Source: a virus
Lineage: Duplodnaviria; Heunggongvirae; Uroviricota; Caudoviricetes
DNA: 62,746 bases
IMG/VR virus record: IMGVR_UViG_3300046311_000202
Reading direction: 5' to 3' (one strand)
Program-made: the position numbers and the translations under genes
Shown here: positions 21,864 to 50,444 of the stretch, one piece after another
Numbering within the stretch: the stretch's first letter is position 1
Layout of the letters: each line of letters opens with the position of its first letter
The notes under the pieces: model-generated
The model's input: the letters and a program-made list of their open reading frames with translations, nothing else
Database searches by the model: none
Told to the model about the DNA's origin: nothing

Positions 21864-21900
21864 ACTAATTTTGTGTTCTCAAAAATTTTAACTAATTTTG
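21864..21900 (+). promoter_or_regulatory. Tandem ACTAATTTTG late promoter (27-bp period)
   Basis: Two copies give TTTG-N19-TAATTTTG. Confidence 0.7.
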
Positions 21901-27740: not shown

Positions 27741-27772
27741 TTTGCAAAATCTAAATATTATTTGTAATTTTG
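27741..27772 (+). promoter_or_regulatory. Promoter TTTG-N20-TAATTTTG
   Basis: Canonical boxes. Confidence 0.65.
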
Positions 27773-29571: not shown

Positions 29572-31281
29572 ATGGCAAGTCACGCACCACAAACAATTTT
29601 ATTTGTTACTAACGAAGGTTCAGTAATGAGTAATGGCTACTCTACAAGATTAGCAAAAGGACAGTTTGGTATCGTTGATAAAGGAGCTACACCATCTGCA
29701 TTAGGTATGGCGGTAGTAGACACTTTTCCAGCAACACCAAAAGATAGATTATTTGAGTTGAAATTAGGTATCGCACCTTTGACACCAACTCGTTCTCAAT
29801 CTAACAAAGCATATTCTTCAATGCCTTTCAAACTTTCAGAAGTTGTAGACATTAAAGTTAACGCTCCAAAATTAGGAGTATCTGTAGATGAGTTCATCAT
29901 CGGTTACGATGGGATTAACTGGGATACAGCATTAACATTACAACCGGGGGATAATGAAGTTATCGATATCACATTAGCTGGAGAAGCTATTGGTATGTTA
30001 GGTTACCCAGAAGCAAAAGTAACAGTAAAACTTTACTTAGAAGCACCAAACGCTATTCCAGGACAAATGGTATCTGTTAACATGGAGAAAATTGTTCAAG
30101 AAGGTGTTGAAAGATTGAAAAAAGTAACTTTACTAGGAGGAGTTCCTATTACTGAGTATATTGATATTACTCCAGTAAATAGCTCAAACCCACAAACTGT
30201 AACAGGTACTGAATACACTTTCTTTGGTTTAAAAGTACAAGATGCAGGTAATGCAAGTGCATTAGGATTAGTGCAAGCACAATATCCAGCACACATTGTT
30301 AAGAGAGAAGGTTACAAAGGAGGAGTTTCTGAGTATGCAATCTTAGCACCAACATCTACAACTTTGGCATCTTTTGCTCAAATATTGTCTTCTCAAGACT
30401 CTGATTGTGCAGGATCACCTGATTGTACAGATACAGTAACAAACATTGCATGGACTGCAGGAGCAACTGCTACAGCAGTAGCTAAAACTTTTACTTTACA
30501 ATTGGCAGATGACAACTGTGGAGATAATAAATTAGAAGCTATCCAAGCAGCATACCCAGAATTAACTATCACTGCAGGAGACTCTCAAGCATGTCAAACA
30601 ATTTATACTACTACAGTATTATCTAACATTGTTTCAGAAGAGTGTTCACCAATCTTAAGAGACTTGTTCTCAGCAGAGGCACCATATTCTTACGAATTCG
30701 TAAGTTGGGAAGCAGCACCAGTACAATACAACGGTATGAGTTCTATGGGTATTCACTTGAAAAGTAAAGTTAATATCTTTGCTGGATCAGAAGAATACAG
30801 AGATGATTTACCATTCGTTTACTCTTCTACAAGAATCTCTATTGCTAATGCAGCTCCAGGACTTGTTTCTGAGTCATTCAAAATGGGATCTAATGGAAGA
30901 TTCAGTGTAAAAGTTCTTTCTATTGGAACAGAACCAGAAGCAGCAGGTGGACAATTCTATGACTTAGAAGAGCGTACTAGAGTATACTTTGAAAATCGTC
31001 AAAGATTAGCAGGTAATAACTACGGTAAATTAGTATTAGGACAGGAATCACACTTGAAACCAACAGTACAATACGTAGATTACTCTATCAGAATTAGAAC
31101 AAATCGTTTTGCTCAATCATTCTCAGGAGAAGTAGTAGAAAATATTGATTACCACATCTTAGTAGATGCTTGTAAATACCAAGGAGTAGAAGCTTTAGTT
31201 AATGCATTAGCAACAGCAGCTGGTTTACCAACTGTAGAAGCTTATCCAGTAGCTTCAGTAACTACAACTACTGGTGCTTGA
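29572..31281 (+). CDS. Abundant structural protein (auxiliary capsid protein-like, 569 aa)
   Basis: MCP-like codon bias, synteny; ends in TGA inside a Thr-rich linker. Confidence 0.65.
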   Translation: MASHAPQTILFVTNEGSVMSNGYSTRLAKGQFGIVDKGATPSALGMAVVDTFPATPKDRLFELKLGIAPLTPTRSQSNKAYSSMPFKLSEVVDIKVNAPKLGVSVDEFIIGYDGINWDTALTLQPGDNEVIDITLAGEAIGMLGYPEAKVTVKLYLEAPNAIPGQMVSVNMEKIVQEGVERLKKVTLLGGVPITEYIDITPVNSSNPQTVTGTEYTFFGLKVQDAGNASALGLVQAQYPAHIVKREGYKGGVSEYAILAPTSTTLASFAQILSSQDSDCAGSPDCTDTVTNIAWTAGATATAVAKTFTLQLADDNCGDNKLEAIQAAYPELTITAGDSQACQTIYTTTVLSNIVSEECSPILRDLFSAEAPYSYEFVSWEAAPVQYNGMSSMGIHLKSKVNIFAGSEEYRDDLPFVYSSTRISIANAAPGLVSESFKMGSNGRFSVKVLSIGTEPEAAGGQFYDLEERTRVYFENRQRLAGNNYGKLVLGQESHLKPTVQYVDYSIRIRTNRFAQSFSGEVVENIDYHILVDACKYQGVEALVNALATAAGLPTVEAYPVASVTTTTGA

Positions 31282-31638
31282 GGAGAAACTACCACCACAT
31301 CTAGTGCACCTGTACACAATGTTATAACTAGTGCACAAGTATACAACAATGCTTTAATGTCAGCATGGCCTTCTCCAAATGAAGGAACTGTATGTACAGA
31401 CGGATTCTATCCAAATAGCATAAGTATACAATTAGTAGGTGGAGACAACGTATGTAATGCGACAGCAGCAATAATTACAAACTTAGAACAATTCCAAACA
31501 ACTATTAATCACACAATAGCAGTTGGAGAAAATGTACAAGTACTTGCTTCTGACGGAGTTCAAAATACATTTAGAAACTTTGCATATAACGGAGATGGTT
31601 ATATGACAGCAAGTTCACAATGTAATACGTGTCAATAA
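31282..31638 (+). CDS. In-frame extension of 29572..31281 (readthrough segment; ORF track calls 31357..31638)
   Basis: Same frame, 25 sense codons between the TGA and ATG 31357; Thr linker continues across the stop. Confidence 0.6.
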   Translation, partial: GETTTTSSAPVHNVITSAQVYNNALMSAWPSPNEGTVCTDGFYPNSISIQLVGGDNVCNATAAIITNLEQFQTTINHTIAVGENVQVLASDGVQNTFRNFAYNGDGYMTASSQCNTCQ

Positions 31639-31654
31639 TAAATTAAACTTAAAT

Positions 31655-31686
31655 AGGGAGGAGAAAAACTCCTCCCTTTTTTTTTT
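31655..31686 (+). terminator. Strong intrinsic terminator
   Basis: AGGGAGGAG-AAAAA-CTCCTCCCT followed by a long T-tract. Confidence 0.9.
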
Positions 31687-31723
31687 ATCTAAATCTATAT
31701 ATAATACAATAAAAACAAAATAA

Positions 31724-32155
31724 ATGAAGACTTATGCACTATATATAGTTACATCTTTATTGGTGTTTTTTGCACCGGTTGTTGGAATATTAATAGCAGT
31801 AGGAGTTGCTATAGCACTAGACACAGTGCTAGGTATAGCTAAAGCTGTAATGATAAAAGATAAAGTTACATCTAGGAAACTTAGTAATATAGTATCGAAG
31901 TTTGTACTTTACCAATCTGCAGTATTATTACTGTATGTAATAGACCAATTTTTAATAGGTGAGTTTTTTAAGTTATGGTTTAGTATACCATTCTTTTTCA
32001 CAAAATGTGTAGCTTTGGTTATCATATTTATAGAACTTACTAGCATGAAAGAAAATTTTGAAGCGGCTTTTCAAATTGACGTTTTTCAAAAAATAAAAGA
32101 ATTACTTAGAAGATCTAAAGAGTTGAAAGACGACATAGACGAAATAAAAGGTTAA
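31724..32155 (+). CDS. Holin (phage_holin_4_1/TcdE-like)
   Basis: Three hydrophobic segments, IELTSMKENF motif, upstream of the endolysin. Confidence 0.8.
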   Translation: MKTYALYIVTSLLVFFAPVVGILIAVGVAIALDTVLGIAKAVMIKDKVTSRKLSNIVSKFVLYQSAVLLLYVIDQFLIGEFFKLWFSIPFFFTKCVALVIIFIELTSMKENFEAAFQIDVFQKIKELLRRSKELKDDIDEIKG

Positions 32156-32158
32156 AAA

Positions 32159-32623
32159 ATGACAACAGCACAAATAACAAAAAAGTACGGTACACCAAAT
32201 GAAACAGGTAATGGATATCTAACAAAGATCACTTTGCCTTATCCTATGAGATTAGCTTGGGATACAGATACTAAAGTTAAAACAATGATGTGCCACAGTC
32301 TAGTAGCAAATAACTTTATAGCAGTATTTAATGAGTTGCTAAAAGAGTATGGTTACGAAAAAATAGTAGAACTAGGCATAGACCTTTTTGGGGGATGCTT
32401 TAACTACAGAAAAATGAGAGGTGGATCAGCATGGTCTACACACTCTTGGGGAATAGCAATAGATTTAGATCCTGCTAGAAACCAACTAAAAGAGACATCA
32501 AAGACTGCAAGATTTGCAAGACCAGAATACAAAAAAATGATTGATATATTTTATAAGCATGGTTTTGAATCCTTAGGGAGAGAAAAGAATTATGACTGGA
32601 TGCATTTCCAAATAAAAAGCTAA
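32159..32623 (+). CDS. Endolysin, M15-family (L-Ala-D-Glu-type) peptidase
   Basis: [20 protein letters not shown]...DWMHFQ zinc motifs. Confidence 0.85.
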
Positions 32624-42743: not shown

Positions 42744-43727
42744 ATGAAAGCGATACATGTAAATTGGACAGCACCTTTCTTTAACAAAGAAAGACTTAGA
42801 GGTCACGGGTTTGATACCACAAGAAATATTACCTCTAGCACTTATGACATACCTGATTACCAATTACTGTATATAATACTGTCAGCACTAAGATGGAAGT
42901 TACACAATGGGCCTATCAAACTTTACACAGATTCTATAGGTTTAAGTGCATACAAGATGTGGGGATTACTTAGTCTGTATGATGAAGTAGACACTGATTT
43001 TTTAGACAACTTAAAAGAAGTAGATGCTGCATATTTTTGGACTAGTGGTAAGATACAAGCTTTACAAAATGAAAAAGAACCATTTGTATTTCTAGATCAA
43101 GACTTTATAATAAGAGGAAAGATACCTCAGAAGTTCTACGAAAATGATTTAGGAATAGGACACTGGGAAATACCAAGAGGTTACTATTACTTTAGAGAGC
43201 AAGATTGGAAAAAAGAAATAAAGCATATTGATTTTCCTAAGGATTACAATGTAAATGCATATTCACCAAACACATCTTTTTTGTATTTTAATAATAAAGA
43301 TATAGTAAACGAATATGTAAGCTGGCACAAGAAGCTAATAAAGACAGAAGGACAAGAAGTACCGGAATGGTTTTGGTTAGCAACTGATCAAGGAATACTA
43401 GGACATGTTATTAGAGAGGGGAACTATAATACAAACACTCTAACAGACAAAGTATTTCTTGCAGATAGTGATTACGGTAACAAAGGTACAAGGTATAAAG
43501 GCTTATCTGAGCAATGGTACTACCCACAAGGAGCCGACTTGAACAAAGGGCTATTAGAATGGGAACATGTATGGTTAGCAAAAGTGGTGTTTAAGTCAGA
43601 CAAAGATTTTGAAAAAGCAGAATGCCAAAGATACTACGATGAGATACATAGTTTAGGAGGAAAAAATTACTTATACAATCTTAGGCTTTTTAAATATTGG
43701 AACGAAGAGAAACATGGCGATAGATAA
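42744..43727 (+). CDS. GT-A-like putative glycosyltransferase (DUF6734-like)
   Basis: KLYTDSIG...FWTSGKI...EPFVFLDQDFII...NTSFLYF. Confidence 0.6.
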   Translation: MKAIHVNWTAPFFNKERLRGHGFDTTRNITSSTYDIPDYQLLYIILSALRWKLHNGPIKLYTDSIGLSAYKMWGLLSLYDEVDTDFLDNLKEVDAAYFWTSGKIQALQNEKEPFVFLDQDFIIRGKIPQKFYENDLGIGHWEIPRGYYYFREQDWKKEIKHIDFPKDYNVNAYSPNTSFLYFNNKDIVNEYVSWHKKLIKTEGQEVPEWFWLATDQGILGHVIREGNYNTNTLTDKVFLADSDYGNKGTRYKGLSEQWYYPQGADLNKGLLEWEHVWLAKVVFKSDKDFEKAECQRYYDEIHSLGGKNYLYNLRLFKYWNEEKHGDR

Positions 43728-44521: not shown

Positions 44522-45229
44522 ATGCATTTTAAAAAACCTCTTATAGAGACACAAGATGAACACATCTTTCAATTAGCACCAATACCAGTATACCAGAGAG
44601 TTTACGAAGATGTGTTGACTGATAAAGTATACAAGCTAGGATTAGAGACTCTTACAGATACTCAAAAGAGAATGGGGCAAGAGTTACCAAAGCAGTATGA
44701 TACAGAAAGACAAGGTCATTATGATATTAATTACGATAGACAAGATCAGTGGGTAGAAGACCACGAATTTCCTCCAATAGGAAGTAGGTTCTACACACCA
44801 CCAAATAACTTCTTAGATAATCCCGATGAGGATGTACAAGTTATAAGAAGAAGAATAGAGGGAGGGTTTTTACAACTACTAAAAGCAATGCAGCTAGAAG
44901 TAGAAGGTAAGCCAATCATAACAGAAAGTTGGTTACAGTACTATGATCCATTCTCAGGAAGAGGGCATAATGCACATAACCATTGCAGATGGCACCATGA
45001 AGAAGCTAAGCCAATCATGTTTTCGGGAGGCTACTACTTATCTGATGGCGAACCTATACAAGATCACCCATATAGCGGAGTATTTGCTTTTCATGTCAGA
45101 GGAATGAAATATTATATAAGACCTAAAAAAGGCATGCTGATTATTTGGCCTTATGATATAATACACTCAGTGGAACCATTTTATGGTAAAGAACATAGAG
45201 CAGTGATTAATTTTAATATACAAGTTTAG
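44522..45229 (+). CDS. 2OG-Fe(II) oxygenase (2OG-FeII_Oxy_5/TIGR02466-like)
   Basis: HNAHNH...SGGYY...GMLIIWPYDIIHSVEP...RAVINFN. Confidence 0.8.
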   Translation: MHFKKPLIETQDEHIFQLAPIPVYQRVYEDVLTDKVYKLGLETLTDTQKRMGQELPKQYDTERQGHYDINYDRQDQWVEDHEFPPIGSRFYTPPNNFLDNPDEDVQVIRRRIEGGFLQLLKAMQLEVEGKPIITESWLQYYDPFSGRGHNAHNHCRWHHEEAKPIMFSGGYYLSDGEPIQDHPYSGVFAFHVRGMKYYIRPKKGMLIIWPYDIIHSVEPFYGKEHRAVINFNIQV

Positions 45230-49760: not shown

Positions 49761-50444
49761 ATGAAAGTACTAATATTTACCCCCTCACATTTCAAGAGGG
49801 GGGCAATGTTAAGATACACTTTACTAGATGTACTTAACCAAACATATAAAGATTTTACATTTGCACTAAGTCTTAAAATTGATGACTTTCAACAAGTTTT
49901 TAATAATGTATTGATAGATGATATAAAAGATCCAAGAGTAGTTTATACAGAGCAGATAAACCACAAAGTTTGCTTCACTCACTATAATGCTATGGACACT
50001 ATAAAATCAGTACCTAATTATCAAGATTATGATTTATTCATAAAGATGGATGACGATGATATCTATAAAAAAGATTATATAAAAAACTTAGTAGACTTTT
50101 TTAAAAGTAACCCAGATGCAGACATTGCCTCTTCTAAAGTAGGAACACAGTTAAATGGGTTCACAGTTATAAAAAATAAGAGTGGTTATACTACCTTAGG
50201 AAGAATATCTAAAGAGGATAACTCACACATGCCTATGACTTTTGCCTTTACTAAAAAAGCATTAGATCAAATTATTAATTTGACAAGAAAAGAATTAGGA
50301 AATGATTGGGAAGATGTAGCTTGGAGAAAGGCATGGATGAAAGCTGGTCTTATTCACAAGGAAATAGACAATGCAGATCAAACTATTTGGAATGTGCATG
50401 GTAAAAATACCACTACTAATAATTATTTAATAAAAAGAAATTAA
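49761..50444 (+). CDS. Glycosyltransferase family 2
   Basis: IFTP...VLNQTYKDF...FIKMDDDDIY. Confidence 0.8.
   Translation: MKVLIFTPSHFKRGAMLRYTLLDVLNQTYKDFTFALSLKIDDFQQVFNNVLIDDIKDPRVVYTEQINHKVCFTHYNAMDTIKSVPNYQDYDLFIKMDDDDIYKKDYIKNLVDFFKSNPDADIASSKVGTQLNGFTVIKNKSGYTTLGRISKEDNSHMPMTFAFTKKALDQIINLTRKELGNDWEDVAWRKAWMKAGLIHKEIDNADQTIWNVHGKNTTTNNYLIKRN

Follow-up and report, generated by a model that had tools for sequence, protein, structure and literature searches.

The virus record IMGVR_UViG_3300046311_000202, a stretch of 62,746 nucleotides (nt) referred to here as the window, raises the question of what becomes of a capsid-surface protein whose gene, the open reading frame (ORF) 29572..31281, ends in a TGA within a threonine-rich linker and stays open in the same frame for 118 codons beyond it. 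The phage is a freshwater (lake) relative of the crAss-like phages. On the basis of the comparisons described below, programmed UGA readthrough yielding a minority of extended capsid-surface subunits is the best-supported reading of this locus, and we put its probability at roughly 55%. Readthrough would explain the shared frame, the open Thr/Ser-rich segment after the stop and the choice of TGA in a genome that rarely uses this codon. TGA is the leakiest of the bacterial stop codons.

The stop, the core protein and the extension

ORF 29572..31281 encodes 569 amino acids (aa), ending ...PVASVTTTTGA, followed by the in-frame TGA at 31279..31281, the candidate readthrough site (context GCT TGA GGA G; this and all other features of the gene are on the + strand). 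The Thr-rich linker before the stop (VASVTTTTGA, 31249..31278) is continued behind it by a post-stop linker of 25 codons (31282..31356), which is composed of a Thr/Ser run and then PVHNVITSAQVYNNAL and is devoid of a start codon; the stop itself stands in a stretch free of Lys and Arg. After the TGA, the frame reads GETTTTSSAPVHNV... for 118 open codons to a TAA at 31636-31638, the first of a tandem TAA TAA (31636..31641) that closes the extended frame; from the TGA to the first Met it reads GETTTTSSAPVHNVITSAQVYNNAL-M.... The 93 codons from this first in-frame ATG (31357..31635) specify a small Cys-containing C-terminal domain, predicted to be a small beta-barrel, and gene callers split the gene into the 569-aa protein and an orphan 93-aa ORF. 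When re-read from the sequence, the ORF coordinates, the position of the TGA, the 118-codon open frame, the run of Thr and Ser across the stop and the positions of two CTAGTGCAC copies (31301-31309 and 31328-31336) were as an earlier note on this DNA had described them.

According to motif and terminator scans, neither a promoter nor a terminator separates core from extension. The last + strand match of the Bacteroidota-type promoter motif (TTTG-N20-TAnnTTTG) before the terminator at 31655 is found at 27741..27772, and the motif scan of the window gave zero + strand matches between 27772 and 34471; given the lack of a promoter motif between 27772 and the terminator, core and extension therefore lie on one shared transcript. 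An intrinsic terminator, consisting of a 9-bp G+C stem and a T-run (31655..31687), is the sole terminator-like site after the capsid gene, in agreement with the earlier note, which had placed the only terminator behind the extension. RNA-library contigs bridge the stop with 0 mismatches, one of them covering 2198 nt from 31207 onward (one run) and two others 188 nt and 425 nt (two other runs); these contigs are no proof of transcription or translation, and contig-derived depth cannot rank expression.

TAA closes 55 of the 66 probable genes of the window and TAG another 10; the capsid gene alone ends in TGA. An open stretch in frame after a stop is by itself not rare, as three other genes of the window run in frame into the next gene. 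What lies beyond chance here is that 25 codons stay open ahead of the first ATG, that the run of Thr and Ser continues across the stop, that a single gene ends in TGA and that fused homologues exist. Since the TGA recurs in independent IMG/VR, JGI, Logan and ENA assemblies (L003/L014, L047, L048, L050, L051, L031/L032, L049), and was seen also in contigs of public runs matching the window, the sequencing error that the earlier note had considered is excluded.

It is hardly credible that the codon is a sense codon by virtue of a reassigned code, with TGA read as Trp or Gly throughout, or that it directs selenocysteine insertion. TGA recoding with suppressor tRNAs is known in some crAss-like phages (PMC12386605, PMC9523058), but in the 62.7 kb of the window the capsid-gene TGA is the sole TGA between long open stretches on a coding strand, and TGA ends 10 of the 130 genes in the 90%-complete relative G004 and two other genes in the nearest record, G001. 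Genome-wide reassignment was rejected on this stop-codon census, TGA being an ordinary stop in G004. As regards selenocysteine, the region 31270-31380 contains no hairpin beyond shuffled controls that could serve as a bacterial selenocysteine insertion sequence.

The core of the protein (29572..31248) is predicted to be an auxiliary capsid protein resembling gp36 of phicrAss001, with PH-like and FliD-like domains and extra inserted domains, as judged from an AlphaFold2 model, Foldseek and VIA-align comparisons, synteny and the profile phrog_32037. The model was computed for the read-through protein from 73 sequences, with a mean predicted local distance difference test (pLDDT) score of 68.5. 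It matches chain a of PDB entry 7QOF (7qof_a) with a Foldseek E-value of 5.9e-8 and a VIA-align Z of 16.4 (root-mean-square deviation 4.9; 312 of 333 residues aligned over model residues 3..557), while FliD D2-D3 chains align with model residues 102..455 at Z 6.1-6.5. The C-terminal end of gp36 aligns immediately before the Thr linker of the window protein. 7QOF chain a is phicrAss001 gp36, an auxiliary capsid protein with a PH-like and a FliD-like domain, which is present in nine copies per asymmetric unit of the T=9 capsid, sits on the outer capsid surface at 1:1 with the major capsid protein and accounts for a large share of the surface that is exposed (PMC10172136). The fold, with a PH-like domain assembled from the N- and C-terminal parts and a FliD-like domain inserted into it, and the gene neighbourhood are common to gp36 and the window core; the two differ in that the window protein has 569 aa with extra inserted domains versus 333 aa in gp36, at an identity of about 12%. 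The model thus indicates that the gene product is a homologue of gp36 and not the major capsid protein. By homology, it would be abundant, surface-exposed and present at 1:1 with the major capsid protein, so that the earlier description as an abundant structural protein holds, with the qualification that the protein is an auxiliary one.

The position of the gene fits this assignment by synteny. According to PHROG profiles, the head module comprises the large terminase (19092), the portal (21918), a 564-aa homologue of an annotated major capsid protein (25986) and a ring/adaptor-like protein (28869), followed by ORF 29572..31281. The same gene order, with the auxiliary capsid gene downstream of terminase, portal and major capsid protein, is found in Cellulophaga phage phi17:2 and in csAssE-Sib. 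The closest cultured relatives of the capsid-surface protein are those of Cellulophaga phages phi17:2 and phi4:1 (38% identity; annotated as "structural protein"), and a nucleotide search of the phage collection with the window gave zero matches.

For the extension, AlphaFold2 predicts a small beta-barrel with four conserved Cys residues (predicted template modelling score 0.68), tethered by a linker that is predicted to be disordered before as well as after the stop (residues 561-617 have pLDDT values below 50). The best PDB matches of the domain are PilZ-like and split-barrel chains at Z 5-6.3, i.e., a generic fold to which no family is assignable. A Pfam search with core and extension gave no match, and neither did PHROG profiles assign the extension domain to a family. 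Against 1.8 billion representatives, an exhaustive HMMER search that used the 118-aa extension as query recovered only the cluster of the 93-aa ORF itself along with a spurious repeat protein, and a word-index search with the 93-aa ORF returned two clusters only. By comparison with known capsid decorations, among them the head fibres of crAss001, the extension may be a display domain on a flexible stalk, with a role in binding or adhesion. The Thr residues of the stalk might be O-glycosylated, glycosylation having been considered possible in the earlier note.

Relatives and selection across the stop

Relatives collected from IMG/VR, JGI, Logan and ENA were sorted into four states at the 3' end of the capsid gene. 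In state (a), the TGA is combined with the domain type of the window; it comprises the window, L046, L003/L014, L047/L048 and L050/L051 (97-100% identical), and L031/L032 and L049 (core 76% identical). In state (b), "fused type A" (P0001, P0002, P0006 and L004-L007; core 92-93% identical), one ORF encodes the core, a TTTTT linker and a homologous domain, which is 22% identical to that of the window with the Cys positions kept. In state (c), "fused type B" (P0003-P0005 and P0007; core 88-91% identical), the one ORF carries an unrelated small domain. Taken together, the fused relatives (P0001-P0007, L004-L007; core put at 90-93% identity overall) have linker and domain in a single ORF of 636-658 aa. 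State (d), found in the remaining relatives, lacks a domain: the core either stops at once or runs into a short linker stub with TAA or TAG at its end, and the same terminator hairpin lies directly 3' of the stop. Judging from the ORFs, in sister phages every subunit bears a related domain, and in others no subunit does.

Between the window and a fused relative, nucleotide identity drops from 83-97% to about 40% exactly at the linker, which marks the linker as the junction where domains are exchanged. In a maximum-likelihood tree of the core, the window group is sister to fused type A (support of 99 in the Shimodaira-Hasegawa-like approximate likelihood ratio test, SH-aLRT), and the L031 group is distant. 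The TGA occupies the same linker site in nine of nine distinct contigs with this domain type, in the same frame, with 118 or 120 open codons and the context GCT or GTT TGA GGA G kept. Conservation of position and frame in related phages, which the earlier note had named as a check, is hence found in two divergent lineages. Contig L050 was rejected as a third independent backbone, since it carries a window-like gene with swapped internal patches, and two backgrounds were counted. The auxiliary capsid gene is mosaic in this comparison: the patches 29918-30218 and 30518-30968 fall to 68-89% identity between the window and the otherwise 98-100% identical L050, which suggests an exchange of surface-exposed inserted domains.

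Comparison of the window with L031 indicates that the extension is under purifying selection and that it has changed in the manner of coding DNA, even in the stretch that precedes the first start codon. For the core, synonymous divergence (dS) is 0.72 and the ratio of non-synonymous to synonymous divergence (dN/dS) is 0.22; for the whole extension, the values are 0.46 and 0.43, from 27 synonymous and 48 non-synonymous changes. Within the extension, dN/dS is 0.34 for the piece from the TGA to the ATG (small counts) and 0.46 after the ATG. Across the 118-120 codons of both lineages there are zero stops or frameshifts, and the indels are in frame. The TGA-to-ATG piece (25-27 codons) is open in both lineages with whole-codon indels, and both of its other frames are closed. 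All six post-stop Thr/Ser codons stay Thr/Ser, including one that changed from ACC to TCG, and L031 has seven. In a neutral simulation at 30-46% per-site difference, the open frame together with the retained Thr/Ser codons arose with P 0.002-0.02.

These figures bear on the idea that a nonsense mutation fell into the linker and left the downstream domain as an unexpressed, decaying pseudogene. Truncation is evidently tolerated, as many relatives are without any C-terminal domain. However, the extension has stayed intact in two lineages at a dS of about 0.5-0.7 with a dN/dS of 0.43 and without stops or frameshifts, and the lineages that truly lost the domain deleted it. The loss was a clean deletion, for which reason one would not expect a domain to last without expression. 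The lineage is present in freshwater runs from 19 studies dated 2019-2025, from which it follows that the stop is stably maintained, and the persistence of the arrangement over these samples likewise speaks against decay. A dead remnant is, therefore, very improbable.

Proposed readthrough and the possible separate 93-aa protein

In the mechanism that we propose, most ribosomes would halt at the UGA within the flexible Thr-rich linker and produce the 569-aa core protein, and a fraction of the ribosomes would decode the UGA, stay in frame and produce a 688-aa form. In the latter, the extension would add more Thr/Ser stalk and a small beta-barrel domain that could form disulfides and would project from the capsid surface, with the stop setting a low ratio of decorated to plain subunits. 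Candidate decoding agents would be a near-cognate host tRNA, for which Trp is the residue expected, or the tRNA-Leu-like RNA of the phage with UCA at the anticodon position, which is discussed below. UGA decoding, its efficiency, the inserted residue and the surface exposure of the C-terminus are all points that we infer.

The chief rival reading, unlikely though by no means far-fetched, is that core and extension are two genes, an ancestral fusion having been split by the stop, with a free 93-aa protein made from ATG 31357 only. Such a product would arise either from internal initiation or from ribosomes that terminate 75 nt upstream and then re-initiate, and would act alone, e.g., as a small capsid-binding or host-binding protein. 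Several observations favour this possibility or otherwise weigh against readthrough. ATG 31357 is conserved in all carriers and stands exactly at the start of the domain core as aligned with the fused relatives, a position at which a separate 93-aa product would make structural sense. Its start-context score of -0.28 is low without being out of range for true starts, ranking among the lowest 7% of these and among the top 13% of internal ATGs, and the 20 nt upstream hold 9 A compared with a true-start mean of 10.5 +/- 2.8, so that the statement of the earlier note that this ATG is without the A-rich context is true in a weak sense only. The 93-aa ORF is annotated by gene callers, and the head-fibre proteins of crAss001 are separate and of similar size, with 97 and 118 aa (PMC10172136). 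Furthermore, the TGA is found in two independent lineages only, and its conservation could be a single inherited event; on reading the alignment, codon-position bias is weak in the variable part of the post-stop linker. Finally, no stimulatory RNA structure is evident, as the region 31270-31380 folds at -20.4 kcal/mol versus -22.0 +/- 3.5 for shuffled sequences (z +0.45).

The last point also bears on a detail of the earlier note, which had envisaged a stimulatory stem formed by the self-complementary CTAGTGCAC. This hairpin is not supported and was rejected on the fold z-score and on the observation that the first copy reads CTAGTGGAC in the L031 lineage, which breaks the pairing with no compensating change.

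The separate gene, on the other hand, leaves the frame match with the upstream ORF unexplained, as it does the 25-27 open codons before the ATG, their whole-codon indels and the Thr/Ser stalk after the stop. The gap of 75 nt between the TGA and ATG 31357 is without a promoter, that ATG has a context score among the lowest 7% for true starts, and a free domain would be without the tether that is present in all fused relatives. Programmed readthrough, as the earlier note had proposed it, is thus strengthened by the conserved stop and frame, the purifying selection and the fused relatives, while it has lost its stem and much of its argument from the A-rich context. Readthrough and initiation at ATG 31357 could also operate together.

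A classical precedent is the A1 protein of phage Q-beta, in which a leaky UGA ends the coat gene of a single-stranded RNA phage and a minority extended form is found on the virion, with no strong RNA structure being required. Stimulatory 3' context or RNA structure is needed in many eukaryotic viruses, and not in Q-beta. The likeness lies in an abundant capsid protein whose gene ends in an in-frame UGA, with a minority carrying a surface C-terminal domain being proposed for the window. In contrast to Q-beta, the window belongs to a tailed double-stranded DNA (dsDNA) phage of Bacteroidota, the protein is an auxiliary capsid protein and not the coat protein, the long form is predicted, the stop lies inside a Thr-rich linker, and sister phages encode the fusion without a stop.

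More generally, RNA phages and plant viruses offer classic examples of coat proteins extended through leaky stops, while tailed dsDNA phages use frameshifting to this end. C-terminal extension of capsid or tail proteins of dsDNA phages by programmed frameshifting is known for T7 10A/10B and for the Listeria phages PSA, A118 and A500 (PMC5009743). There, as would be the case here, a fixed minority of a major structural protein gains a C-terminal display domain by recoding at the 3' end; the difference is that readthrough of an in-frame stop is proposed here and not a -1 or +1 shift. In a limited literature search, we found no described case of stop readthrough in structural genes of tailed phages, an absence that is not proof. 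The head fibres gp21/gp29 of crAss001 (PMC10172136) would be comparable to the window domain in projecting from the capsid; however, these are separate proteins, whereas the window domain is attached to the auxiliary protein via the Thr linker. With the recoded crAss-like and gut phages (PMC9523058, PMC12386605), the window shares its related group, a stop in a late structural gene and possibly a phage UCA RNA. It differs from them in that they have many in-frame stops in many genes, while the window has one site and otherwise uses TGA as a stop.

If true, a conserved readthrough site in the capsid-surface protein of this freshwater phage, an abundant relative of the crAss-like group, would mean that tailed phages have readthrough of stops among their recoding devices. 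The cost and benefit of decorating the capsid would become testable by comparison of related lineages in which all subunits, a minority of them or none carry the domain. For annotation, the locus illustrates how gene callers split such genes into a main protein and an orphan ORF. The UCA-bearing RNA in the same phage offers a concrete test for phage tRNA-like RNAs.

The UCA-bearing RNA, the host and the neighbouring genes

Neither the window nor the nearest record, G001, contains tRNA genes, and Rfam at gathering threshold returned nothing on the window; relatives carry only a tRNA-Met and a permuted gene resembling transfer-messenger RNA (tmRNA). However, contig L132, which was taken as a contig of the TGA lineage with a ribonucleotide reductase (RNR) protein and stems from the same sample series as a 93-aa ORF of that lineage, encodes a 103-nt tRNA-Leu-shaped RNA (L132:1318-1420) whose variable arm measures 35 nt and whose anticodon position reads UCA. 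When the neighbouring RNR protein was used to scan metagenomes, only distant phages came up, at most 62% identical.

This RNA is the basis for a further possibility, which we regard as doubtful, namely that it decodes the lone TGA efficiently by inserting Leu. In that case, the extended form would account for most or all subunits late in infection, and the stop would be a switch for timing or host dependence and not a device that sets a ratio. The RNA has a Leu-type D arm, a long variable arm and discriminator A, and its loop CCUCAAA places UCA at positions 34-36 followed by A37 and A38, thus giving A36-A37-A38. A UCA version is missing from the four relatives whose capsid gene is without the TGA (G004, G005, G006 and G007): the RNA is absent from G004 and G007, G005 has a different tRNA-like RNA, and G006 shares the acceptor and D chassis but carries a non-anticodon insert. 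On the other hand, position 33 is C and not the near-universal U, and neither ARAGORN at default settings nor the Rfam tRNA model RF00005 called L132:1318-1420. A 96% identical copy in an unrelated T4-like tRNA cluster (L136, L137) has G34 in place of U and discriminator T. Efficient suppression would, in addition, lead to readthrough of the other TGA-ending genes of the lineage. The co-occurrence of the UCA RNA with the TGA is suggestive but weak, as it sets one lineage against four relatives, and the RNA is a possible but doubtful UGA suppressor.

A more elaborate version, which we likewise consider rather improbable, is a two-part display system, in which the linker UGA and the phage's own UCA-bearing RNA as a weak, dedicated opal suppressor would together set the decorated share of roughly 500 subunits. 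If true, this would give a first function to a member of the widespread family of tRNA-Leu-shaped phage RNAs. Returning to minority readthrough, this RNA is one of the two candidate decoding agents named above, next to a near-cognate host tRNA.

As to the host, the window is AT-rich phage DNA with 35% G+C. The promoter motif TTTG-N18-21-TAnnTTTG has 21 matches in the window compared with 2.4 expected, mostly preceding gene blocks (+ strand examples at 21870, 24764, 27741, 51459 and 61150), and this enrichment supports a Bacteroidota host.

Directly after the terminator of the capsid gene, a holin (PF05105) and an M15 peptidase endolysin (PF13539) are encoded at 31724-32623, and one RNA-library contig extends from 31207 past the terminator into these holin/endolysin genes. 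In some relatives, a GIY-YIG/NUMOD3 gene is inserted downstream of the lysis genes (L031:6172-6756). Pfam matches in the late region comprise DUF6734 (42744-43724), a 2OG-Fe(II) oxygenase (44522-45226) and a glycosyltransferase of family 2 (49761-50441); other candidate glycosyltransferase genes of the window had no Pfam match.

Beside the RNR genes of relatives lies an RNA island with a tRNA-Met(CAT) and a permuted two-piece tmRNA-like gene (L132:803-1170; L024:906-1278 in G005; L020 in G004). With 51-65 bits, the latter exceeds the gathering score of Rfam RF04321, which is 47, and ARAGORN calls a permuted tmRNA with tag peptides in G004 and G005, not on L132; a phage-borne two-piece tmRNA would be unusual in a Bacteroidota phage. 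The RNR alpha subunits of the relatives P0192, P0194 and P0201 (915-922 aa) contain an insert of ~370 aa with the intein/LAGLIDADG Pfam families PF14528 and PF14890.

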